A DNA stretch of 33,120 bases, taken from the NCBI GenBank assembly GCA_030699515.1, contig JAUYME010000066.1, forward strand, positions 1 to 33,120, read 5' to 3'. Below, in pieces: positions 6,386 through 33,120 of this stretch. This stretch comes from a bacterium (GTDB taxonomy: Bacteria; Patescibacteriota; Minisyncoccia; UBA6257; 1-14-0-10-44-23). The number at the start of each line of letters is the position of its first letter. The first letter of the stretch is position 1. The notes under the pieces were generated by a model. The model was not told where the DNA came from and did no database searches. It saw nothing but the letters and a program-made list of their open reading frames with translations. Both the position numbers and the translations under genes were made by a program.

Positions 6386-6393
6386 ACTTGCCT

Positions 6394-6425
6394 CTTGTCC
6401 ATAACTCTATAGAGTTATGGACAAG
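6394..6425. promoter_or_regulatory. 32-nt perfect palindrome cttgtccataactcta|tagagttatggacaag overlapping the ArsR start codon
   Basis: Perfect dyad. ATG 6417 lies in the right arm. Confidence 0.7.
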
Positions 6426-6749
6426 CCGAGTGTTTTTAGGGTAGACATGACAGAAAGTTCAAGAAAAAATTTTTACAGGTTGGAACGCACTGTTAGGGGC
6501 TTTTCTAATCATAGGCGAATTGAGATTTTGCTGCTGCTTCGAGAGCAGAGGAATATTTCGGTGTCGGATATTGCCAAGGAGTTGAATATTTTGCTCAAGA
6601 CTGCATCAGCTCATGTAAACCGCTTGGCACTGGCTGGTCTGGTTTGGAAGCATTCTGATGGCTCAAGTGTAATTTGTGAGTTAAGCGAACTAGGAGAGAA
6701 GACCGTGGATTTTCTAGAGGATATTGCAGAGAAGTTCAATAAAAAGTAG
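6417..6749 (+). CDS. ArsR/SmtB-family winged-HTH regulator
   Basis: FSNHRRIEILLLL...ISVSDIAKEL...SAHVNRLALAGLV, the typical ArsR HTH. Confidence 0.75.
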   Translation: MDKPSVFRVDMTESSRKNFYRLERTVRGFSNHRRIEILLLLREQRNISVSDIAKELNILLKTASAHVNRLALAGLVWKHSDGSSVICELSELGEKTVDFLEDIAEKFNKK

Positions 6750-6756
6750 CCCTTAT

Positions 6757-6788
6757 CTAGTCCATAACTCTATAGAGTTATGGACTAG
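6757..6788. promoter_or_regulatory. 32-nt perfect palindrome ctagtccataactcta|tagagttatggactag (second copy, with compensatory change)
   Basis: Same dyad as 6394-6425 except tt..aa -> ta..ta at mirrored positions. Lies 8 nt after the ArsR stop. Confidence 0.7.
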
Positions 6789-6828
6789 ATGGCTTTTGTT
6801 TTGAGAGCTTTTGTATTAGATTAGAGCG

Positions 6829-8702: not shown

Positions 8703-8875
8703 CCACAATCGCACTATGCCGCGGCACAGTGCGATTGTGGGGAGTGGTGTGGTGGGTGGTTAACAAGGTGGTTAACCGCTATAAAGGCTAGAAAGCCTCA
8801 TGAATACTGGGCTTTTGGGCTGTTTAAAAAAGAATTATATAATTTATTATGTAATAAATTATATAATTCTTTTTT
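8703..8875. repeat. Composite module A: hairpin 8703-8740, GGTGGTTAAC x2 (8755-8764, 8767-8776), aagcctcatgaata, A/T-only palindrome 8826-8875
   Basis: Homologous in order and sequence to 32120-32358. The hairpin stems differ by compensatory changes. Confidence 0.8.
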
Positions 8876-8951
8876 TTGGGAAGTCTTATTAAAAAGCGGA
8901 ACCGGCGGCCCTGGAGAGGGTCGCCGGCGCGCGGATGGAGGGTGGGGCTAG

Positions 8952-9188
8952 CTAGCAAACAGAGTGTCCCTTGTTGATCCACTCGTCGAGCTCTTGCTGT
9001 CGAGGGTCGAAGTGGCAGGTGCCTCCGACCTCGCGCCGACAGATAGGGCAGTTTTGCATGTGCTCTATCAGTCGCCGACCAGCAGGATCTGTCGTCTGCT
9101 CGATGGTCTTGGCCGATGGCAATCTGGGGAAGTAGAGGATTTCTCCTTCCGTCGGTCGCCGATCTTGGGGAGAAGGCTGGTCCACCAT
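8952..9188 (-). CDS. GC-rich mini-ORF (78 aa), CPIC...C.H motif, unknown function
   Basis: SD GGAGA lies 6 nt before the ATG. GC-rich third codon positions. A hairpin plus U-tract follows. The overlapping ORFs 8824..9201 and 8964..9347 look like off-frame translations. Confidence 0.55.
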   Translation of the reverse strand: MVDQPSPQDRRPTEGEILYFPRLPSAKTIEQTTDPAGRRLIEHMQNCPICRREVGGTCHFDPRQQELDEWINKGHSVC

Positions 9189-9778
9189 GGATGGTCTCCA
9201 TTATTCCAGAACCGTCTGGAGCCGTCTTTTCGGATGCGTGAAAAGAAAAACGCCCGCTCGGGAAGCGGGGCTTATCTAGATTCTACTTATAAACAAGGCT
9301 CGCCTCTCGATCAGGAGTTATTAATAATACTAATAATGTTTAATTGAGGAAGGCTCATGCGGTTGATGTTAGCAGATTTATTGATAGCGTTCAACTGCTT
9401 GATTTTTGCGTGAATGTGTGCTATAGTGTTTTTGTAATGAGTATAGATTTACTTTGCGGGATATCGACGAAGTAGATTTCATTCAATTTGTGGCAAAGAA
9501 GACCTTTCGGGGTCTTTTTTGTTTGTTTTGTATAGCCCCTCTCCCTCCATAAAACTTCTTTATTCAAGGCAAAGTTTCTCTACTATTTTCTTCATTAGAA
9601 ATGCTCGCCGATACACTCATTGGTATCGCCTGTGCTTTCCAATTTCGAAAATACTATGAAAATTGCCTTGCCTAAAATATTTCATGAAGGCAAAGGGGCT
9701 TTGCTAATAAATAACGAAGGAAGAGTGACAAAATTTCAGTTTGACAGCGTTTAATATAGAAGTGCTATAATTTCATAA

Positions 9779-15157: not shown

Positions 15158-15201
15158 CACTGCATATACCGTAATTCCGCGGAATTACGGTATATGCAGT
15201 G
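15158..15201. promoter_or_regulatory. 44-nt perfect palindrome abutting an extended -10 box (TGgTATAAT 15200-15208)
   Basis: cactgcatataccgtaattccg|cggaattacggtatatgcagtg. Likely operator/promoter of the second ArsR gene. Confidence 0.7.
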
Positions 15202-15221: not shown

Positions 15222-15509
15222 ATGGCAGAGGATAGGCAAAAGTATAGAAATGTTGAGCGAGTGATGAAGGGAGTGGCGAATCATCGGCGGGCTCAAATCC
15301 TTTATCTATTGAAAGAGGAGCCGGAGCTTTCGGTAGCTGAAATAACCAAAAAGTTAGGAGTAAATTTTCGAACGGTTTCTGATCATACGAAGAAGCTGGT
15401 TCATGCAGGTTTAGTAATGAAAAGATCGGATAGCGTGAGTGTTCGGCACAAACTTACAGATTTAGGACATAAGGTTTTTGAGTTTATCGTAACCTACATA
15501 AAAAACTAG
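15222..15509 (+). CDS. ArsR/SmtB-family winged-HTH regulator (paralog of 6417..6749)
   Basis: VANHRRAQILYLL...LSVAEITKKL...SDHTKKLVHAGLV aligns with the first ArsR protein. Confidence 0.75.
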   Translation: MAEDRQKYRNVERVMKGVANHRRAQILYLLKEEPELSVAEITKKLGVNFRTVSDHTKKLVHAGLVMKRSDSVSVRHKLTDLGHKVFEFIVTYIKN

Positions 15510-15513
15510 CTTC

Positions 15514-15547
15514 CATATACCGTAATTCTGCAGAATTACGGTATATG
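15514..15547. promoter_or_regulatory. 34-nt perfect palindrome, variant of 15158-15201 with a compensatory centre change (ccgcgg -> ctgcag)
   Basis: catataccgtaattctg|cagaattacggtatatg, 5 nt after the ArsR stop. Confidence 0.7.
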
Positions 15548-15621
15548 CAGAAGCCGGGAGGTGGAAAGGGTGTATAATAGAAGACCCTAGGTATTATTAT
15601 TAATCTTATTAGTCATTATTT

Positions 15622-16620: not shown

Positions 16621-16915
16621 TTTTTTTGTGCTTTGCCTTGACCTGCGAGACTTTCGTTTGGATGAAGTATCGCCAAGTCAAGGTAGCTTTATTAAAGTTG
16701 TAATAAATGCGACTTTTCTACAGTAGCTGACGATTGAAACTAGCAACTCTTTCCTTGCTATGTTATTCGCTAAAAATCTTTAAGGTGATAAAATGGAATT
16801 GTAGTTTCAAGAAAAGTTGAATATCCCGATATGATAGCTTCTAGTGCCTTTGGCACTAAGCATCAAACGGGATGCTCAATTTTGTAGATAAATCTAAGAT
16901 TTAAACAAAATTGGC

Positions 16916-18763
16916 ATGTGTGGAATTGTTGGATACATAGGAAAGAAAAGGGCAATGCCGGTTTTGCTGGATGGTTTAAAGCGCTTGGAATATCGCGGCT
17001 ACGATAGTGCCGGGGTGGCGATTTTGGAAAACACTGAAGTTAAGGCATTTAAAAAAGTTGGGCGGGTGGAAAATTTGCTTAAAGCGATTGAGACAGCGGG
17101 GGAGTTGGACAGCATGGCCCATATTGGTGTAGCGCATACCAGATGGGCAACTCATGGAAAGCCCAGCGAGGAAAATGCTCATCCGCACAGTGATGAATTT
17201 GGTAAGTTTTGGTTGGTGCACAATGGAATTATTGAAAATTATGAGGAACTAAAGAAAGAGCTTTCAGAGAGCGGGGTAAAATTTAGTTCGGAAACGGACA
17301 CCGAGGTTGTAGTGCAGCTGATTGCTAAAGAAATGGAAGCTGGACTAAGTTTTGAAGAGGCTTTTCGAGTGGCGCTTAAAAAACTTCGAGGAGCTTATGG
17401 AATTGTAGTAATGAGTGCAGACGAGCCGGAATATTTAATGGCTGCAAGAAATTCAAGTCCGCTTTTAATTGGAGTAGGAGATGGGGAAATGATAGTAGCG
17501 TCTGATGCAAGTGCCGTTGTGGGTACAACTAAAAAAATTGTTTATTTGGAAGATGGGGAGTTGGCAAAAGTTTCAGCAGATGGGCTAAAGATTGAGCTTA
17601 TTGCCGAGGCTGGTAAAGAGTTGAAGCGCGAGGCAGAAACTGTAGATATGGATGCAAGCGAAATAGAAAAGGACGGACACGATTTCTTTATGCATAAAGA
17701 AATTTTTGAAATTCCCAGCGCTGTTTTAAATGCGGGAAGGGGAAGGTTTATTGCCAGTGAGGGTTTGGTGAAGTTTGGAGGTATTGAAGAAATTAAAAGC
17801 AAGTTAAGGGATATTGATAGAATTATTATTTCCGCTTGCGGCACCGCAGCCTATGCTGGCTTACTGGGCGAATATTTTATTGAAGAGCTGGCCGGAATTC
17901 CGGTGGAAGTGGAAATTGGCTCTGAATTCAGATACAGAAGCCCTGTATTTACGGAGCGCACTGCTTTAATTGTTGTTTCTCAATCTGGGGAAACTGCAGA
18001 TACATTGGCGGCGGTGCGAGAAGCAAAGGAGAAGGGGATTTTAGTTTTAGGTATTGTTAATGTAGTTGGCTCTACAATTGCGCGCGAAGTGGACTGTGGA
18101 ATTTATACCCATGCCGGTCCGGAAATTGGAGTGGCCTCTACAAAAGCTTTTATTTCTCAGCTTACGGTACTTTTACTTTTGGCTATTTATTTGGGCAGAC
18201 AGCGAAATTTATCTGTAAATGAAACAAAGGAAATTTTGGCAGATTTAGAGAAGCTTCCTGAGCTTTTAGATTCTATCTTGCATCGAGAAAAATTGGCAAA
18301 GAAGCTAGCAAAGAAATATAAAGATTTTACCAGCATGGCTTTCTTGGGTAGAAAATATAGTTTCCCTGTGGCGCTGGAGGGAGCTTTGAAATTAAAAGAA
18401 ATTTCTTATATCCATGGAGAAGGTTATCCGGCAGGAGAATTTAAGCATGGGCCAATTGCGCTCCTTGATGAAAAATTTCCGGTTTTCTTTATATTGCCTA
18501 GCGATGATGTTTACGAAAAAAGTAAATCTAATTTGGAAGAGATAAAAGCAAGGCAAGCGCCTGTAATTGCCATTGTGACTGAAGGAAATAAAGAATTAAT
18601 GAGAATGGCTGATGATGTTTTGGAAATCCCCAAAATAGCAAATATTTTAAGCCCGTTTCTTTCTACGCTTTGGACTTATCTTTTTGCTTACCATGTTGCG
18701 GATATGAAAAATTTGGACGTGGATAAGCCTAGAAACTTAGCTAAGTCTGTGACCGTCGAGTAA
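16916..18763 (+). CDS. glmS: Glutamine--fructose-6-phosphate aminotransferase
   Basis: N-terminal MCGIVGY, two SIS domains, C-terminal KPRNLAKSVTVE. Confidence 0.95.
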   Translation: MCGIVGYIGKKRAMPVLLDGLKRLEYRGYDSAGVAILENTEVKAFKKVGRVENLLKAIETAGELDSMAHIGVAHTRWATHGKPSEENAHPHSDEFGKFWLVHNGIIENYEELKKELSESGVKFSSETDTEVVVQLIAKEMEAGLSFEEAFRVALKKLRGAYGIVVMSADEPEYLMAARNSSPLLIGVGDGEMIVASDASAVVGTTKKIVYLEDGELAKVSADGLKIELIAEAGKELKREAETVDMDASEIEKDGHDFFMHKEIFEIPSAVLNAGRGRFIASEGLVKFGGIEEIKSKLRDIDRIIISACGTAAYAGLLGEYFIEELAGIPVEVEIGSEFRYRSPVFTERTALIVVSQSGETADTLAAVREAKEKGILVLGIVNVVGSTIAREVDCGIYTHAGPEIGVASTKAFISQLTVLLLLAIYLGRQRNLSVNETKEILADLEKLPELLDSILHREKLAKKLAKKYKDFTSMAFLGRKYSFPVALEGALKLKEISYIHGEGYPAGEFKHGPIALLDEKFPVFFILPSDDVYEKSKSNLEEIKARQAPVIAIVTEGNKELMRMADDVLEIPKIANILSPFLSTLWTYLFAYHVADMKNLDVDKPRNLAKSVTVE

Positions 18764-18770
18764 GGATGTG

Positions 18771-18837
18771 GACCCCCGCGTGCTTCGCGCGCTGCACCAG
18801 AGCCGACGAGGCAAGCTCGGGCTCGGTGCGGGGCGGG
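18771..18837. repeat. GC-rich two-hairpin element, copy 1
   Basis: gaCCCCCGC-[GCGUG cuucg CGCGC]-u-[GCACC a GAGCC ga CGAG gcaag CUCG GGCUC GGUGC]-GGGGcggg. Homologous to 19337-19406 and 32844-32912. Confidence 0.85.
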
Positions 18838-18838
18838 T

Positions 18839-18877
18839 AAACCAAGAAATTTGGCAAAAAGCGTTACTGTGGAATAA
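18839..18877 (+). pseudogene. Displaced second copy of the glmS 3' end (KPRNLAKSVTVE*), synonymously different from 18725-18763
   Basis: aaa cca aga aat ttg gca aaa agc gtt act gtg gaa taa translates identically to the last 12 codons plus stop of glmS. It lies 114 nt downstream in the same frame. Confidence 0.8.
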
Positions 18878-18883
18878 AGAAAT

Positions 18884-18916
18884 AAAAAACACCTCGCAAG
18901 CGCGGGGTGTTTTTTA
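18884..18916. terminator. Bidirectional intrinsic terminator
   Basis: aaaaaacacctcgc-aa-gcgcggggtgtttttt, between convergent glmS and the small membrane gene. Confidence 0.7.
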
Positions 18917-19168: not shown

Positions 19169-19336
19169 AGTGTGTATGTTGTTAATTTCTAATGAATACT
19201 AGTAAAAGCATAACATTATTATAGAATAATGCTCGTTTTGCAGTGGAAAAATAGAGAGTAATCGCGAACATCGCGAATTGCGCAAAATATCGCGAATAAA
19301 ACTAAGGCGGGGAAAATTGGGTTATTCCAAGGTTGA

Positions 19337-19461
19337 GACCCCCGCATGGCAAGCCGTGCTGCACCAGAACCAACGAAGTAAATTCGGGCTCGGTGCGGGG
19401 CAGGACTTGGTAGCTTGCTGGTGTGTACTTAGTGATGGGCTGGATAGTTTTTCAATCGGTC
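19337..19461. repeat. GC-rich two-hairpin element, copy 2 (core 19337-19406) plus a ~55-nt tail, bounded by 19-nt direct repeats
   Basis: Core homologous to copies 1 and 3. Direct repeats ttattccaaggttgagacc at 19322-19340 and 19462-19480. Confidence 0.85.
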
Positions 19462-19953
19462 TTATTCCAAGGTTGAGACCGTGGACTGCAAAGATCTAGT
19501 TTCTTTGATTTGAGGATTGTCCGGGTTGGAAGTCAATACAATAGAAATTTGCACAGCAGTGGTAGAGGTGCCGCTAAATTCCTGGAAAGTTAGGCTGTCT
19601 AGCGTAACATCGGCGCTTGTTAGCGCTTCTTGCGAATTTGACCCCAGCTTTCTGTAGATTGTTCCTGCTGAACTGTTGATTATAATCGGGTCGGTGCTTG
19701 ACACTCCGGTAGTAATTGTAAGGGTTGAACTGCTGACAGATATTGATTGACCCTGGCGGACGTCGGTTTTGATAACATTCATTACAAAGCTTAGCTCACT
19801 GCTTAGTTTATAGCCTGAGCTTTGATGCTGCTGAACTCTAAGAATTGTAAATAGTATTCCTGAAAGAAGGCTAAGAAGGATAACGGTAAGGCCAAGGTAG
19901 ATGACCAGCTCAATGAAAGAAAGCCCCCGCGTGCTTCGCGCGCTTTTAAACAC
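19462..19953 (-). CDS. Prepilin-type (type IV pilin-like) pseudopilin; start uncertain (GTG 19953 or ATG 20028)
   Basis: G|LSFIELVIYLGLTVILLSLL is a class III signal/methylation motif. The stretch upstream of the Gly is repeat-derived sequence. Confidence 0.7.
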   Translation of the reverse strand: MFKSARSTRGLSFIELVIYLGLTVILLSLLSGILFTILRVQQHQSSGYKLSSELSFVMNVIKTDVRQGQSISVSSSTLTITTGVSSTDPIIINSSAGTIYRKLGSNSQEALTSADVTLDSLTFQEFSGTSTTAVQISIVLTSNPDNPQIKETRSLQSTVSTLE

Positions 19954-20044
19954 TAATGCACGAATGGGCGCGAATCCTCTAATAAGAAATGAAGGTCCTT
20001 TCGTTTTATTCGGTGATTGATGAATCATTGGTGTATTAGTGTTT
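19948..20044. repeat. MITE-like inverted-repeat element E1 (termini AAACACTAATGCAC ... GTGTATTAGTGTTT)
   Basis: Homologous, in reverse orientation, to 29112-29227. Shares a 19-nt identical end, cattggtgtattagtgttt. Confidence 0.75.
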
Positions 20045-20131: not shown

Positions 20132-20836
20132 ATGACGGATAGTAATGAAACCGGAACACAGGTAAAAGACTCAATGCTTGAAGAGATGGCGCAGGCCGGT
20201 CTTTTGTTTGGGCGGAAAAAATCAAAGACTAATCCAAAAATGAAGGATTATGTTTTTGCGAACCGAAACGGCTTTGAGATGTTTGATTTGGAAAAAACCG
20301 CCGCAAAGCTTGAGGAAGCTAAGGCATTTTTGGCTTCCGTGGCAAAGACCGGGAAAACTATTTTGTTTGTTGGTACTACTCCTGCGGGCCAAGAAGTTAT
20401 GAAGGAAGTTGCCGAAGGCTTTAAGGCTCCTTATGTAACCCATAGGTGGCTTGGCGGTACTTTAAGTAATTTTGAAACAATTTCTTCACGGCTTAGGTAT
20501 TTTATTAAACTTAAGGCCGACAAAGAATCCGGAAAACTTGAAAAATATACCAAGAAGGAGCGGACAAAATTTGATAAAGAGCTGGAAAGATTAGAGAGGC
20601 TTTTCGGCGGTCTTGAAGAATTAACTGCTATGCCTGCCGCACTCATTGTGGCAAATACAGATGCGCATTCAATTGCAGTAAGAGAGGCAAATATTGCAGG
20701 AGTGCCGGTAATTGGAATTACAAATTCCAGCACCGATCCTGAGGGCGTAGATTATCTGATTCCGGCAAATGACAACAGTATTTCTAGCGTGCGTTGGATT
20801 GTTGAGCAATTAGCGCAGGCGTTAAAGACGAAGTAA
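20132..20836 (+). CDS. rpsB: 30S ribosomal protein S2
   Basis: MLEEMAQAGLLFGRKKSKTNPKM... and HRWLGGTLSNF. ATG 20132 preferred over the ORF-track start. Confidence 0.9.
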   Translation: MTDSNETGTQVKDSMLEEMAQAGLLFGRKKSKTNPKMKDYVFANRNGFEMFDLEKTAAKLEEAKAFLASVAKTGKTILFVGTTPAGQEVMKEVAEGFKAPYVTHRWLGGTLSNFETISSRLRYFIKLKADKESGKLEKYTKKERTKFDKELERLERLFGGLEELTAMPAALIVANTDAHSIAVREANIAGVPVIGITNSSTDPEGVDYLIPANDNSISSVRWIVEQLAQALKTK

Positions 20837-21003
20837 GCGAAGTAGACGAAGTAGGCGAAGTAAGCGAATAAACGAAGTAGCAAATAAACGAAGTAGGCGA
20901 AGTAGGCGAAATTAGAATTAACTTTGAACTATTTGGAATATGGCGACCCTTCGACAAGCTCAGGGTGCTCATATTTCTAGATAAATCAAAGATTTATAGA
21001 AAT

Positions 21004-21447
21004 ATGGCAGCAGAAGATGTAGCAAAGCTTAGAGAACAAAGCGGTGCAGGGATAATGGACTGCAAAAATGCTCTTGAAGAGGCGGGTGGCGATTTTGATA
21101 AGGCTTTGGAAATAATTAAAGAAAAGGGTCTTGCGAAAGCAGAAAAGAAAGGGGATAGAGAAGCCGGCGCGGGATATTTGGAGAGTTATATTCACCAAGG
21201 CAGAGTTGGTGTTTTGCTTCATGTAAATGCAGAGACCGATTTTGTTACCAAGAACGAAGACTTTCGGGAAATGGCAAAGAATATCGCTATGCACATTAGC
21301 GCAATGATGCCTTCCAGCGTAGAAGAGCTTATGGAACAGGATTATGTTAAAGACCCAAGTATGACTGTGGAGCAATACGTTAAGAGCGTTATTGGAAAGA
21401 TTGGAGAAAACATTAACGTTGTCAAATTTGCTTGCTACGCTGTTTAA
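21004..21447 (+). CDS. tsf: Elongation factor Ts, short form
   Basis: VAKLREQSGAGIMDCKNALEEAGGDFDKA (UBA-like N-terminus) and NAETDFV. Only about 147 aa. Confidence 0.85.
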   Translation: MAAEDVAKLREQSGAGIMDCKNALEEAGGDFDKALEIIKEKGLAKAEKKGDREAGAGYLESYIHQGRVGVLLHVNAETDFVTKNEDFREMAKNIAMHISAMMPSSVEELMEQDYVKDPSMTVEQYVKSVIGKIGENINVVKFACYAV

Positions 21448-21926: not shown

Positions 21927-21970
21927 AAAAGATTAACGGCTCACACATATGTGTGAGCCGTTAATCTTTT
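21927..21970. terminator. 44-nt perfect palindrome, AAACGGCTCA-family hairpin (copy 2), flanked by A4/T4
   Basis: aaaagattaacggctcacacat|atgtgtgagccgttaatctttt. Confidence 0.75.
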
Positions 21971-22043
21971 CAAAAAGTAGGCGACCCCGCATGCACTGAT
22001 TTCTCCTGTGCATTGTTGCGGGGCCGGGGGGGTGCGTGAGGAC

Positions 22044-22328
22044 TTACGTCGCCTCATCCTCATGGGGGTCCTCCTTGCTAGCAACGAACTCTTGGTTGTA
22101 GGCAGTGTAGACGGCCTTGACCATTGTCCAGGCATCTTCCTCGGAGCCGGCCCGCTCAACTACCCTCTGACTGTTCGGAGAGTACTGATGGAGCATGATG
22201 AGCGCCCAAACGACGATGTAGTCGTTGGTGATCGTGTGCTCCATACCGTCAACGCACACCTTCATGCCAATGAGCTCTTGCAGGCGAGAATAGACCGCGC
22301 CGGTTTCGGGGCGCTTACTGTCGTTCAT
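22044..22328 (-). CDS. GC-rich mini-ORF (94 aa), unknown function
   Basis: SD GGAGA lies 5 nt before the ATG. GC-rich third positions. Own hairpin plus U-tract terminator (about 21975-22025, minus strand). Confidence 0.65.
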   Translation of the reverse strand: MNDSKRPETGAVYSRLQELIGMKVCVDGMEHTITNDYIVVWALIMLHQYSPNSQRVVERAGSEEDAWTMVKAVYTAYNQEFVASKEDPHEDEAT

Positions 22329-22405
22329 CGGGATCTCCTATCGGATATCCTTTTTCCGTTGCTTTATAAATAGCACTTTTGGACTGCTGTGTCTATGTTT
22401 TTTGT

Positions 22406-22579: not shown

Positions 22580-23164
22580 ATGTTGGATAAAAATCAGTTA
22601 GAGCAAATGTATGCTGAGGAAGGAAAGTCTATGCAGGAGATTGCGGATTTGTTTGGTTGTTCGCTTAACAAGGTGAGATATTGGATGGATAGGCTGAAGA
22701 TTAAAAGGCGCAGCATAAGTGATGCTATTTATTTGAGAAGCAATCCCAATGGGGACCCGTTTAAATTCAATAAGCCCAAAACGATTGCGGACGTAGAGCT
22801 TCTTGGGTTGGGCCTAGGGCTTTATTGGGGCGAGGGAACAAAGGCAAGCAAGAGTTCTGTACGACTTGGAAATACGGACCCTAAACTAATTTTGAAATTT
22901 GTTGAGTTTCTTGAAAGAATTTTTTCAGTAAACAGAGGTGATATGAAGTTTGGTTTGCAGATTTTTTCTGATATTTCGCCTAAGAAAGCACTGGACTTTT
23001 GGGCTGAAAAGCTTAGAATAAACAAATCTCAATTTTACAAAGTTATTGTTACGCAGTCTGGCTCAATAGGGACTTACCGAAAGAAGTCTGAGTACGGAGT
23101 TTTGACTGTGTATTACAACAATACGAGATTGAGAGACATGTTAGTTGATATGTTGCCGACGTAG
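22580..23164 (+). CDS. HTH plus single-motif LAGLIDADG homing-endonuclease-like protein (free-standing)
   Basis: N-terminal HTH (SMQEIADLFGCSLNKVRYWM). LAGLIDADG-like LLGLGLGLYWGEGTK, followed by KLILKFVEFLERIF and GVLTVYYNN. Stop TAG 23162-23164 lies inside the tRNA 5' exon. Confidence 0.7.
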   Translation: MLDKNQLEQMYAEEGKSMQEIADLFGCSLNKVRYWMDRLKIKRRSISDAIYLRSNPNGDPFKFNKPKTIADVELLGLGLGLYWGEGTKASKSSVRLGNTDPKLILKFVEFLERIFSVNRGDMKFGLQIFSDISPKKALDFWAEKLRINKSQFYKVIVTQSGSIGTYRKKSEYGVLTVYYNNTRLRDMLVDMLPT

Positions 23165-23521: not shown

Positions 23522-23698
23522 GTGGCAGATTCAAAATTCTCAAAAAACATAGTAAAGCTTCGTTGCGTTGATTGTGGCAAAACCAACTACTACACTAGGA
23601 AGAACAAAAAGCTGGTAGAGCGTAAATTGGAGTTCAAAAAATACTGTAACCATAAGGACTGCCACAAGCACACTGTTCATAAAGAAGCTAAAAAGTAA
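23522..23698 (+). CDS. rpmG: 50S ribosomal protein L33 (Cys-containing form), GTG start
   Basis: VADSKFSKNIVKLRCVDCGKTNYYTRKNKKLVERKLEFKKYCNHKDCHKHTVHKEAKK. Below the ORF-track size cutoff. Confidence 0.8.
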   Translation: MADSKFSKNIVKLRCVDCGKTNYYTRKNKKLVERKLEFKKYCNHKDCHKHTVHKEAKK

Positions 23699-23730
23699 AA
23701 ATCTACGCGTTGCGTAGATTTTTACTTTTT
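23690..23730 (+). terminator. Palindromic terminator overlapping the rpmG stop
   Basis: aaaaagtaaaaatctacgc-gt-tgcgtagatttttacttttt. Confidence 0.7.
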
Positions 23731-23811
23731 AGCTGTTGGAGATGAAGAGTCATTTTGCAGATGTCTTTAAATTTGGAGCTTACTTCTGTATAGTTGAGGT
23801 CAGTCCGAACA

Positions 23812-24756: not shown

Positions 24757-24895
24757 GCCGTTTTGGGTTAAAATAGGGCATTCCTAAGAGTAATCGCTAA
24801 AATCGCGAAAGTACACAAAAAATCGCGAAAAAGATAAAGACGCATAAGACTAAGGAGTAATCGCGAAAAACGCGAATTGATTCAAAATATCGCGA

Positions 24896-26172: not shown

Positions 26173-26403
26173 ATGGAAACAGCAGGAATGTCTGTAGAAG
26201 CAGCAAGTATGATTGCAAAGGGGCTAATTGCTCTTGCAATGGTGGGAACCGCTGCCGGTGAAGGTTACGTTATCGGTAAGGCTCTTGAAGCCATTGGACG
26301 AAACCCAGAGGCTGGAAGCTCTATCTTTGGAAAAATGATTATCGGTGTGGCCATGGCTGAGTCTACAGCTATTTACGCATTGGTGTTGTTTTTCGTCATC
26401 TAG
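26173..26403 (+). CDS. atpE: F0 ATP synthase subunit c
   Basis: Hairpin proteolipid with GRNPE loop and AMAESTAIYALV carboxylate helix. Confidence 0.9.
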   Translation: METAGMSVEAASMIAKGLIALAMVGTAAGEGYVIGKALEAIGRNPEAGSSIFGKMIIGVAMAESTAIYALVLFFVI

Positions 26404-26458
26404 GAGTAATCGCTAATATCGCGAACGGGGGAGGTAATATCGCGAATAAAACAAAAAC

Positions 26459-26941
26459 GTGCAAGAAGTACTAGGAAAAATTGGATTTGATTGGCATTTA
26501 GCCATTGTAAACTTGGTGAATGTATTCATTATTTTTCTGGTACTAAAAAAGTGGGCTTTTGGGCCAATTCAGAACATTATTGATGAGCGAAAGAAGGAGG
26601 TAGATGCAAGTTTGCAGTCTGCGCAAGATGCGCAAAAGCAAAGCGAGATGGCAGAGCAAGAGCGGGAAAAAACCATTGCTAAAGCTAGAAAGGAGGCACA
26701 GGGAATTTTAGAAACTGCCAACGAAGAAAGCAAGGGTATTGTTGAAGAAGGAAAGCTGAAGCTTTCTAAGGAAAAAGATGAGATGCTAAAGAAGGCAAGC
26801 CTTGAGATAGAAGCAAAGAAAAAGGAAAGTGAAGACAAGCTAAAAAGTCAGGCATCCGTCCTTATTACTTCTGGAATTAAGAAAATTCTTAAGGAAGAGG
26901 TGGATAGGGAGATGAACAGTCGCATTATCAACAAAAGTTGA
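26459..26941 (+). CDS. atpF: F0 ATP synthase subunit b (GTG start)
   Basis: N-terminal TM, then a long charged coiled coil. Position in the operon. Confidence 0.8.
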   Translation: MQEVLGKIGFDWHLAIVNLVNVFIIFLVLKKWAFGPIQNIIDERKKEVDASLQSAQDAQKQSEMAEQEREKTIAKARKEAQGILETANEESKGIVEEGKLKLSKEKDEMLKKASLEIEAKKKESEDKLKSQASVLITSGIKKILKEEVDREMNSRIINKS

Positions 26942-30176: not shown

Positions 30177-31595
<1,419 letters not shown>

Positions 31596-31610
31596 CGAAG
31601 CTCAGCCTTC

Positions 31611-31667
31611 AAGGATGTAGGATGTAGGAGTTAGGATGTAGGGCTGGAAGCGAACTAAAGTTCGCAT
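31611..31667. repeat. Second copy of the AGGATGT-word element with covarying central hairpin (GCGAAC-UAAA-GUUCGC)
   Basis: aaggatgtaggatgtaggagttag... is shared with 27466-27523. Confidence 0.7.
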
Positions 31668-31760
31668 TATAGAAAGGCAAAAATAATGACAAGTGAAATA
31701 GATTTAATCCTACTTCGCTAAAGCTTCGCAGGACTATCTAAAATCAAAGATTTTAAAGAA

Positions 31761-32039
31761 ATGATACAACTAAGAATCGTAACGATAGAGGGGGTGAAAT
31801 TTTCCGGGAAGGTGGGGCAGGTAACACTTCCTACCGGTGCCGGTGAAATTACGGTTTTGCCAAACCATATTCCTTTAATTTCTCAATTAAATGCTGGAAC
31901 GTTGCGAACGAAAGGAGGTGAAGAAGGGGAGCAGGCTTTTATTATTGGCAAAGGAGTGCTTGAAGTAAGGAAGGGAAGCAATGTAGTGGTGCTTACGGAT
32001 GAATGCAAAAGCAGTAGCCCTTCGACAAGCTCAGGGTAA
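31761..32039 (+). CDS. atpC: F1 ATP synthase subunit epsilon, beta-sandwich domain only
   Basis: The N-terminal domain pattern (LPNHIPLIS, VLEV) is present. The protein stops after 92 aa. The last 7 codons lie in a 20-nt motif that also occurs at 20947-20966. Confidence 0.75.
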   Translation: MIQLRIVTIEGVKFSGKVGQVTLPTGAGEITVLPNHIPLISQLNAGTLRTKGGEEGEQAFIIGKGVLEVRKGSNVVVLTDECKSSSPSTSSG

Positions 32040-32119
32040 ACAATTAGCATGTAGTAAGTAGTAAGCAGAAGGCGAAGACCAAGGCAAAGACAAATGCTAA
32101 GAAAAGAGGGGGGCGAGCC

Positions 32120-32358
32120 CCCACAATGCTGTTATGCCCAGGCATAACAGCATTGTGGGAAGTGGTTAGCCCGTCCAGCGCACTTCCTTCGGCCCCGCTC
32201 AAGATAAACAAGGCAGGCAGGGTAAACGGGGTAGGCTAGGTGGTTAACTGAGTGGTTGACTGCTTGGTAGAGTGCTTAAGCCTCATGGATAGAGGGGTTC
32301 TAGTCGATTTGGAAAAGAATTATATAATTTATTATATAATAAATTATATAATTCTTTT
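32120..32358. repeat. Composite module B: hairpin 32120-32159, GGTGGTTAAC/AGTGGTTGAC (32239-32248, 32251-32260), aagcctcatggata, A/T-only palindrome 32313-32358
   Basis: Same order as module A (8703-8875), with an extra ~65-nt GC-rich insert after the hairpin. Confidence 0.8.
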
Positions 32359-32362
32359 TTTG

Positions 32363-32408
32363 GATGCTATATCATATCCGGCCGGATATGATATAGCATC
32401 TTGTTTTT
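32363..32408 (+). terminator. 38-nt perfect palindrome plus T-tract
   Basis: gatgctatatcatatccgg|ccggatatgatatagcatc ttgttttt. Confidence 0.65.
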
Positions 32409-32476
32409 AAACTTGGCAATAAATTGTTAGTATTTAAGTGTTCCTCGAAAATTTCACGACCACGGAAGGAGAATGG

Positions 32477-32677
32477 ATGCAGGAGCAGAAAAGCGCTGTG
32501 GACCCCATGCGCCTCAAGGGGCAGTGGGTGAGCTGTAGGGACCAATGTCGCCCACTCTTCGTTCGCGAAGTGGGTGGCGGTTCCAACCCGCTCGGGCTGG
32601 CTGAGGATGAGCTGGGCAAGGTCATCCTCTGGTCGCCACTGAAGAATGTGGACATCCCCACCGATCTGGGCGTCTGA
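32477..32677 (+). CDS. GC-rich mini-ORF (66 aa), unknown function
   Basis: SD GGAAGGAG lies 5 nt before the ATG. GC-rich third positions. Weak local similarity (C....REVGG....P....EL) to the 8952..9188 product. Confidence 0.5.
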   Translation: MQEQKSAVDPMRLKGQWVSCRDQCRPLFVREVGGGSNPLGLAEDELGKVILWSPLKNVDIPTDLGV

Positions 32678-32679
32678 CG

Positions 32680-32843
32680 CTCACACGGAAGCCACAACTT
32701 CCGGCGCTAGGCGCCGGTACGCAACTTCCCGGGGGTCGCCGTATCTGCGGCGACCCCCAGACCCCATAGCCCTTGTAGCTCCCGCCCGTTGCAAAGTAAT
32801 GGGCGAGGCTCGCCCAGCAGCAAAGCTGCTTCGGGCGGCAATG
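32680..32843. other. Chain of GC-rich hairpins, including a second Y-shaped unit (CCGCCC [GGGCGA ggc UCGCCC][AGCAGC aaa GCUGCU] GGGCGG)
   Basis: ggaagcc-acaa-cttcc, ggcgc-tag-gcgcc and gggggtcgccg-tatct-gcggcgaccccc are read directly. All ORFs here look like off-frame noise. Confidence 0.5.
32769..32781 (+). other. Duplicated fragment of the tRNA-Arg 5' end (gcccttgtagctc versus gcctttgtagctc at 32965-32977)
   Basis: 12 of 13 nt identical, same orientation, 196 nt upstream of the intact tRNA. Confidence 0.6.
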
Positions 32844-32912
32844 GACCCCCGCGCGCTTCGCGTGCTGCACCAGAACCAACGAGGCAAGCTCGGGTTCGGT
32901 GCGGGGCAGGAC
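32844..32912. repeat. GC-rich two-hairpin element, copy 3
   Basis: gacccccgcgcgcttcgcgtgctgcaccagaaccaacgaggcaagctcgggttcggtgcggggcaggac. Confidence 0.85.
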
Positions 32913-32964
32913 TCAATAGCCATTAGCCCTGATGTTGTTTGTATGCTTTGATGCGCGTGAATAT

Positions 32965-33039
32965 GCCTTTGTAGCTCAATGGATAGAGCAGTCCCGTCCT
33001 AAGGGAAAGATGTGGGTTCGATTCCTACCAAGGGCACCA
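32965..33039 (+). tRNA. tRNA-Arg(CCU), CCA encoded
   Basis: GCCTTTG TA GCTC AATGGATA GAGC A GTCCC GTCCTAA GGGAA AGAT GTGGG TTCGATT CCTAC CAAGGGC A CCA. Confidence 0.85.
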
Positions 33040-33041
33040 GA

Positions 33042-33070
33042 GTAAATTCTGCGCAGAGCGCAGAATTTAC
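33042..33070 (+). terminator. Palindromic hairpin after tRNA-Arg, followed by CAAATTG/CAAATTT word stutter to the window end
   Basis: gtaaattctgcgc-aga-gcgcagaatttac. Confidence 0.55.
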
Positions 33071-33120
33071 AATTGCAAATTGCAAATTTCAAATTTCAAA
33101 TTTTTAATTTCAAATTTTAA

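Follow-up and report, generated by a model that had tools for sequence, protein, structure and literature searches.

The stretch of DNA considered here, called the window throughout, comprises 33,120 nucleotides (nt) of contig JAUYME010000066.1, from a bacterium of the phylum Patescibacteriota. It holds glmS, a gene for a small membrane protein, a minus-strand gene for a pilin-like protein and rpsB. The glmS and pilin-like genes are each followed by a copy of the same dispersed repeat, termed element E, which is ~71 nt long, strongly structured and GC-rich (~65–70% GC in a genome of 42% GC). At both sites the open reading frame (ORF) runs intact to its stop codon and a second version of the last codons of the gene lies on the far side of E. 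The whole case consists of this one window, the three full copies of E in it and what the ends of contigs imply. Two related contigs were recovered through homologues of the pilin-like protein and serve for comparison, L002 from ENA (pilin 78% identical by BLASTP) and L003 from the Logan contigs (72%).

At the pilin-like gene the duplicated terminus is exact. The 19-mer TTATTCCAAGGTTGAGACC occurs exactly twice in the window (Table 1), as a sequence-only reading of this DNA had claimed; a scan of both strands allowing up to 3 mismatches finds no other site, and none is expected from 100 shuffles. The 19-mer is thus not a dispersed repeat within the window, and in the stretch 19300–19500 it is the sole direct repeat detected. 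Read as its reverse complement, the right-hand copy is G GTC TCA ACC TTG GAA TAA, which agrees with the earlier statement that it comprises the last five codons (VSTLE) and stop of a minus-strand pilin gene. At the N-terminus of the 188-residue product a prepilin-like motif precedes a hydrophobic helix, and the last 13 residues of the protein are the same in L002 and L003. It has no match in Pfam, and its similarity to the ComGF minor pilin (E=0.007) falls under the curated cut-off. These features weakly suggest a pilin, for which 'pilin-like' is a fair name.

At glmS the duplicated terminus is longer and recoded. The stop codon of the functional end (dupA) is followed by five bases, GGATG, by E copy 1 and, from the first base after E, by the displaced end (dupB), which spells the same peptide. 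The two differ at 13 of 39 nt (67% identity) and in 11 of 12 codons, their longest shared run is 5 nt, and all differences are synonymous, including TCT versus AGC for serine, an outcome seen in 0 of 200,000 random trials with 13 substitutions each. Judged by this pattern, dupA and dupB must each have served as a genuine glmS end during its evolution, in separate lineages, and because all 13 differences are synonymous the duplication is not a decayed target-site duplication. At each of the 11 differing codons dupB has the commoner host codon, and it lies at the 99.6th percentile of host-usage sequences; GC content at third codon positions (GC3) is 0.36 for the whole glmS gene versus the higher value of dupA given in Table 1. 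From this codon usage, which is a weak hint, dupB is probably the native end and dupA probably came in with E. Identity to the relatives (dupA 79% to L003, dupB 77% to L002) does not show which end is native, because the window, L002 and L003 are about equidistant, at 72–75% pairwise over the last 651 nt of glmS; the 67% between dupA and dupB falls slightly under this range. Behind dupB lies a terminator hairpin that the consensus terminator scan did not flag; promoter and terminator scans were uninformative. The equivalent of this terminator in L002 directly abuts the glmS stop.

Element E is present in the window as three full copies, all on the plus strand, and one 21-nt fragment. A covariance model made from the three copies and run unfiltered across the window returned these at 89–100 bits, together with the partial copy. 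The shared fold consists of a P1 stem of 4–6 bp (CCCCGC/GCGGGG) around two hairpins, P2, which is short, and P3, which is long and interrupted. In the three-copy alignment 98.6% of pair cells are standard pairs, against 21–48% when the partners are slid. Three of the 23 pairs change on both sides; 73 of 500 shuffles equal these values, a control that is not decisive because there are only three sequences. Copy 2 is the most divergent and has 71% identity to copy 1, from which it is 567 nt distant. Copy 3 lies 51 nt upstream of tRNA-Arg (32965), and no duplication of a piece of the tRNA or of any gene end flanks it, only chance matches of 9–14 nt. Flanking duplications are accordingly 19 nt and exact at copy 2, 39 nt and recoded at copy 1, and absent at copy 3, so that the expectation that further copies would carry them held for copy 1 and failed for copy 3.

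The covariance-model match to the fragment spans 19917–19977, around a core of 21 nt (Table 1). It falls within the leader-coding part of the pilin-like ORF, where it encodes SARSTRG on the minus strand, just before G/LSFIELV. Around it the leader regions of L002 and L003 vary in sequence and length; at the same site L003 has a different GC-rich hairpin, and L002 has neither hairpin nor fragment.

The junctions of copy 2 can be followed base by base. The 121 nt between the two 19-mers are made up of E copy 2 and a spacer of 54 nt. Copies 1 and 3 open with TGGACC, and the block of copy 2 opens with GACC, which is also the last 4 nt of the left 19-mer; because GACC is common to both, the left junction is a 4-nt overlap and not a clean element end. 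At glmS the 3' end of copy 1, GCGGGT, resembles the GTGGAT that precedes the duplicated block, as read from the sequence. On the right, the sequence shared by the three copies stops at CAGGACT. The interval had been described as copy 2 plus a tail of ~55 nt resembling that of copy 3: copy 2 itself and the shared CAGGACT stand, and the rest of the tail does not, its similarity to the copy-3 tail beyond CAGGACT being not significant in a global alignment against shuffles (p ~0.1). Nor does the spacer show significant similarity to the sequence after copy 1. It contains a 14-nt motif, TCACTAAGTACACA, which is unique in the window and matches TCAGTAAGTACACA in the 3' flank of the L003 pilin gene at 13 of 14 positions; the two lie equally far from the pilin stop, ~26 nt (shuffle p ~0.002). 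Because of this match, 'element plus tail' is probably not one mobile unit, and from its sequence the spacer is more likely to be pilin 3' flank, native or the donor's, than part of such a unit. Beyond the displaced 19-mer, the 53 nt directly upstream of the start of the small-protein gene are clearly orthologous to the L002 intergenic region. The stretch 19300–19500 contains no inverted repeat of at least 8 nt, the only inverted pairing being the internal P1 stem. A simple target-site duplication is therefore not borne out, given the absence of terminal inverted repeats, the 4-nt overlap of E with the repeat and glmS duplicates that are 13 synonymous differences apart.

The relatives provide uninterrupted versions of both gene ends. 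In L002 the gene order is that of the window (rpsB, pilin, small membrane protein, glmS), and the pilin stop is followed by a plain intergenic stretch of 57 nt; in L003 the pilin gene and glmS are convergent, with 40 nt between them. Neither inspection nor a search with the covariance model found E after the pilin gene or glmS in L002 or L003, which upholds the view of an insertion at a gene terminus that leaves the ORF intact.

Within the source population, copy 2 appears to be polymorphic. Two Logan contigs from run SRR13727534, both 100% identical to the window, end at the repeat: L001, carrying rpsB and the pilin-like gene, stops at window position 19462, the final base of the right 19-mer, and L020, carrying the small-protein gene, E copy 1 and glmS, has window position 19340 as its first base, where the left 19-mer begins on the minus strand. 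A de Bruijn simulation at k=31 gives one unbroken unitig for the filled allele alone; when an allele lacking 19341–19480 is mixed in, unitigs end exactly at 19340 and 19462, and an insert unitig of 181 nt and an empty-junction unitig of 41 nt are also produced. The ends of L001 and L020 are thus those that a presence/absence polymorphism predicts, in which filled and empty alleles would coexist and the empty junction would read GGAAAATTGGGTTATTCCAAGGTTGAGACCGTGGACTGCAA. A different insert at the pilin site would give the same contig ends. With a native spacer, the empty allele may be derived, not ancestral, the product of a deletion in which slippage across a hairpin joined the two 19-nt repeats. 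Since L020 crosses copy 1 unbroken, that copy looks fixed in the source population.

Table 1. Coordinates of element E, the duplicated gene termini and adjoining features in the window
Feature	Position	Strand	Remarks
Functional glmS terminus (dupA)	18725..18763	+	KPRNLAKSVTVE and stop; GC3 0.58; 10th percentile of host codon usage
E copy 1	18770..18838	+	99.9 bits; 3' end abuts displaced glmS terminus
Displaced glmS terminus (dupB)	18839..18877	+	Same KPRNLAKSVTVE and stop, in frame, 114 nt downstream of dupA
GC-rich hairpin, T-runs on plus and minus strands	18884..18916		Apparent shared terminator of glmS and the convergent 78-aa gene, read from sequence
Displaced 19-mer copy (antisense of VSTLE and stop)	19322..19340		Non-coding here; its final 4 nt, GACC, open the conserved block of E copy 2
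E copy 2	19337..19407	+	GACC-CCCGC, hairpin P2, long hairpin P3, GCGGGG-CAGGACT; 88.9 bits
54-nt spacer ('tail')	19408..19461		Not conserved among copies; contains TCACTAAGTACACA (19422-19435, minus strand)
Functional 19-mer copy	19462..19480	-	Last base of Thr codon, then VSTLE and TAA stop of pilin-like gene
Pilin-like ORF, 188 aa	19462..20028	-	Prepilin-type G/LSFIELV motif
Partial fourth E copy	19923..19943	+	21 nt, CCCCCGCGTGCTTCGCGCGCT, identical to P1 5' strand and P2 of copy 1
E copy 3	32843..32913	+	100.2 bits; right edge of GC-rich non-coding/orphan stretch 32420-32913

Relatives of E were sought widely. Against Rfam 15 at the gathering threshold only four tRNAs in the window reach the cut-off, and an E-value search of 31500–33120 gave no match to E copy 3; one hit touching its first bases is to Giardia RNase MRP (32728–32815, minus strand, 15 bits, E=0.99). 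A strict E pattern had 0 matches in each of two collections, genome contigs and viral contigs. A looser pattern gave 16 matches in metagenome contigs, all by chance and in high-GC coding DNA, and two further scans of viral contigs gave 5 chance matches, none fitting the covariance model. A six-frame translation of E, concatenated into a protein query, found nothing among 5.8 billion proteins. Relatives sought in genome contigs through the neighbouring 78-aa protein yielded none, and a profile search with this protein also yielded none and missed the query itself, probably since the protein is short and of low complexity. Exact-protein look-ups of glmS and of the orphan ORF 32438/32477 showed neither to be on record, and that of atpC led to a contig ending at an AT-rich palindrome before reaching copy 3. 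A single sequencing run seems to be all that represents the lineage. With no further copies or relatives of E found, nothing was replicated outside the window. As candidate identities for E, an integron attC site, a dif/Xer site, a Tn7 end and a translational bypass were rejected, the sequence features that define them being absent from E; so were group II intron domain V and a tRNA-like or tmRNA structure, which lack their defining features in E and have no Rfam match.

The reading that we put first, while stopping somewhat short of calling it probable, is a one-sided, homology-anchored illegitimate recombination of the kind known as homology-facilitated illegitimate recombination (HFIR): the incoming DNA would bring a gene end of its own and be joined at the foot of E's stem. 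E would then have reached the pilin-like gene and glmS by recombination and not through a transposase making staggered cuts. The incoming DNA would have carried its own copy of the last codons and stop of the resident gene; the conserved gene body would have served as the homology anchor, and the hairpin of E would mark the illegitimate end. That other end would have been joined at a short GC-rich microhomology at the foot of P1, namely GACC at copy 2 and GCGGGT versus GTGGAT at copy 1. With the join 19 or 39 nt upstream of the resident stop, the resident terminus would be left beyond E as a displaced repeat; because it was pushed to the far side, the gene end would be intact and the two termini would persist as a direct repeat. 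At glmS the incoming terminus would have come from a diverged lineage, which would give 39 nt that encode the same protein in DNA 33% different; at the pilin-like gene it would have come from a close relative, giving 19 identical nt in an event recent enough for filled and empty alleles still to coexist. We infer the direction of transfer, the HFIR mechanism and the role of the hairpin, including that it defines the junction, from this arrangement. An imported gene end is the single idea that covers both sites, and a spacer matching the 3' flank of the L003 pilin gene is what would be expected if the donor's native flank came along. Transformation would probably be the setting of such events. 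Besides the pilin-like gene the window encodes the competence protein ComEC, and given these two genes natural transformation is plausible.

Several points weigh against this reading. HFIR does not explain how E first arrived at three unrelated loci, and it needs two independent events that both end at boundaries of E. A donor as diverged as dupA (67% over 39 nt) would be a poor substrate for RecA, and no donor tract is obvious from GC3 in the sequence before dupA. A classical insertion with target-site duplication would likewise yield a perfect 19-nt repeat and the empty allele, which is deduced from contig ends and was not seen in reads. The match between the spacer and L003 extends over just 13 of 14 nt, copy 3 has no duplication, and only three copies of E, with no relatives in the collections searched, bear on the matter.

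The main rival, which we consider unlikely, is a miniature integrative element of the Campbell or attachment-site (att) type, in which E and a mimic of the target gene's terminus together form a tiny site-specific unit. In an elaboration that we likewise doubt, an integrase encoded elsewhere would possibly move the unit in trans, possibly as a single-stranded circle, and the 19-mer and the 39-nt block would be cores like those of attL and attR. An imported, recoded end that replaces the native one and displaces it, as at glmS, is the pattern of prophage e14 at icd/icdC (PMC13626634), and the exact 19-nt core around copy 2, the GC3 signature confined to the duplicated 12 codons (which fits a discrete insert of 114 nt), the coexistence of filled and empty alleles, as in excision and integration, and the placement of every E copy on one strand all agree with it. 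Yet no integrase or recombinase is found among the scanned ORFs of the 33-kb window, and glmS duplicates that share at most 5 consecutive identical nt would make a poor overlap for a tyrosine recombinase. Moreover, E is oriented oppositely relative to its two target genes, inserts of 114–140 nt are far smaller than any known integrative element, and the spacer looks like native flank.

Lower in our estimation stands a non-autonomous transposon resembling a miniature inverted-repeat transposable element (MITE), with long and variable staggered cuts, for which the 19-nt repeat would be a true target-site duplication. It would account for a family of several copies and for a perfect repeat flanking an insertion that the relatives lack and that is apparently polymorphic. 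Duplications of such length have precedents in IS1634/IS1549 (8–514 bp; PMC2266710) and in a casposon (15 bp; PMC5137440). Against it, the element has neither terminal inverted repeats nor a defined common 3' end, the tails being unrelated and that of copy 2 resembling native flank, and no transposase was found in the window. Flank lengths are not constant (19 nt exact, 39 nt recoded, none at copy 3), and 13 differences at glmS that are all synonymous would be impossible for a neutrally decayed duplication.

We regard as improbable that the sites are scars of larger islands, cis-mobilisable remnants of kilobase-scale elements that once sat at the 3' ends of glmS and the pilin-like gene and were later deleted down to an att-proximal E. 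The gene-end replacement at glmS would suit such a history, as would the position of copy 3 at the edge of a GC-rich orphan stretch of ~500 nt beside a tRNA gene and the adjacency of other GC-rich islets in the window to tRNA genes; but two independent deletions would be required, each leaving ~70 nt, the polymorphism of copy 2 implies a recent and clean event of 140 nt, and no integrase remnant was found in the window. An assembly artefact, with a unit of 140 nt misthreaded by the metagenome assembler or contig ends that coincide by chance, is very improbable: the source is a metagenome-assembled genome, and the Logan contigs are short and also break at 16858, 20975 and 32342, but two independent contig ends fall on exactly the bases predicted by the filled/empty mixture, an independent contig crosses copy 1 intact, and a 19-nt repeat, being shorter than usual assembly k-mers, should not alone create a false loop.

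A further-reaching proposal, which we also count as unlikely, is that E is the core of an undescribed miniature mobile unit that colonises the 3' termini of conserved and even essential genes by supplying recoded last codons and a stop, and is thus a self-repairing insertion. Such a unit would be currently active, inserting or excising, in an uncultivated, probably competent, small-genome bacterium, and would move by a structured single-stranded or recombinational intermediate with no transposase acting on inverted termini. Should the pattern extend across the genome, a tiny non-coding repeat could settle at the termini of glmS and other essential genes at no cost, through a spare gene terminus that it carries or creates, by a mechanism between phage-style gene-end replacement and MITE-style spread. 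Recoded and displaced gene ends, together with filled and empty alleles, would mark recent recombination or transformation in an uncultivated lineage where genetics is impossible. Duplicated termini can also mislead gene callers and assemblers, and contigs here break exactly at the repeat.

The window contains further repeats and genes. Another family of small repeats, in which the palindrome TCGCGA is frequent (GAGTAATCGCnAAnATCGCGAA ... AATATCGCGAATAAAAC), occurs at 19252–19314, 24784–24876 and 26400–26464. Two of its sites lie just upstream of ATP-synthase operon genes; the remaining one stops 7 nt short of the displaced 19-mer, and the orthologous intergenic region of L002 lacks it. These repeats could act as operators or promoter modules, or represent a further mobile repeat. 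Three GC-rich islets (8880–9300, 21960–22400 and 32420–32913) have 54–62% GC, against ~42% for the window, and hold small orphan ORFs with no family match at 8824–9201 (minus), 22044–22328 (minus) and 32477–32677 (plus). Two islets adjoin tRNA genes, E copy 3 lies at the edge of the third, and the islets may be foreign DNA. Perfect or near-perfect AT-rich palindromes of 44–50 nt are found at 8793–8876, 32278–32361, 21927–21970, 15158–15201 and 23686–23734, and an AT-rich unit of 84 nt is repeated at 86% identity beside two of the islets; the Logan contig L021 ends within one of its copies (32342).

Between tRNA-Thr and tRNA-Trp, an ORF of 194 aa (22580–23164, plus strand) combines an N-terminal helix-turn-helix (HTH) domain matching phage 'HNH endonuclease' PHROG families with a LAGLIDADG-like motif (LGLGLGLYWGEGTK); judged by these motifs, it is possibly a free-standing gene akin to those for homing endonucleases. 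Two small ArsR/MarR-type HTH genes, at 6417–6749 and 15222–15509, are each bracketed by paired inverted repeats of 33–37 nt that are themselves palindromic (6393–6425 / 6757–6789 and 15160–15196 / 15514–15550), an arrangement that could reflect operators in pairs or resemble a cassette. Positions 44–165, at the window's left edge, hold three tandem GC-rich units of 37 nt (GTCCCACCGCCGCCAAGGCTATGGCGGGCAGGCAAAG), and every unit contains a hairpin. Just upstream of the starts of glmS and tsf lies a repeat of 47 nt (16870–16916 and 20963–21009, 81% identical), and no more than 12 nt separate its edges from the outer ends of L020 (16858) and L001 (20975); this hints at further variation or at shared regulatory modules. 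Tandem 9-nt units similar to GAAGTAGGC occupy 20813–20915, at and beyond the 3' end of rpsB.

Among known systems, the closest parallel to the glmS site is gene-end replacement by integrating elements. Prophage e14 supplies a working 3' end to icd of E. coli, and the native end survives as the fragment icdC (PMC13626634). The arrangement of e14 and phage 21 at icd resembles that at E in that an incoming end replaces the native one and leaves the protein intact, the native end being displaced as a non-functional fragment, and in that the two ends differ mainly at synonymous sites; in e14, excision restores a single end (PMC13626634). The two also differ: e14 is ~15 kb long and has its own integrase and excision functions, whereas only 75–121 nt separate the duplicated ends at the E sites and no recombinase was seen, and in E the same small structured module recurs at different genes and in both orientations. 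Compared with integrative elements generally, the replacement of a gene 3' end is present at glmS, no tyrosine or serine recombinase was found among the scanned ORFs of the window, and an identical core such as attL and attR share measures 19 nt at copy 2 and at most 5 nt at copy 1.

HFIR has been described in transformable bacteria, with a homology anchor on one side and a join at 3–10 bp of microhomology on the other (PMC6382021). As at the E sites, foreign DNA is added beside the anchor, and the GACC junction, the recoded glmS end and the nearby competence genes fit; the difference is that HFIR is known from one-off laboratory events, not from a specific structured repeat recurring at gene termini.

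Direct repeats longer than the usual 2–14 bp link E to IS1634/IS1549, with duplications of 8–514 bp (PMC2266710), and to casposons, one of which makes a 15-bp duplication overlapping the 3' end of a tRNA-Pro gene, so that the gene survives (PMC5137440). Those elements have terminal inverted repeats, a DDE transposase or the Cas1 casposase, and exact duplications, whereas in E inverted termini and a nearby enzyme are lacking and the glmS duplication, one of two, is recoded. For IS1634/IS1549 the long and variable repeats match, and neither the DDE transposase of a 1.5–2-kb element nor inverted termini were found in the window. For casposons, no Cas1 casposase or PolB occurs among the window ORFs and inverted termini are lacking, the likeness being a long repeat that overlaps a gene end and nothing more.

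Small dispersed repeats form the remaining group. REP/BIME, ERIC, Correia and RUP sequences and the Rickettsia palindromic elements are, like E, short, GC-rich or palindromic, present in multiple copies and located between genes or at gene ends, and the Rickettsia elements occur inside coding sequence, as does the 21-nt piece of E in the pilin leader. E differs from these families in having no sequence or Rfam match to them and in folding as a two-hairpin junction, not a single palindrome; to our knowledge, flanking duplications of 19–39 nt that carry a stop codon are not a feature of any of them. We cannot place E and its duplicated gene termini, one recoded and one apparently polymorphic, in any described family. 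In the way it works, E is most like gene-end replacement by integrating elements and the products of HFIR, and in size and copy number it is like the small dispersed repeats.

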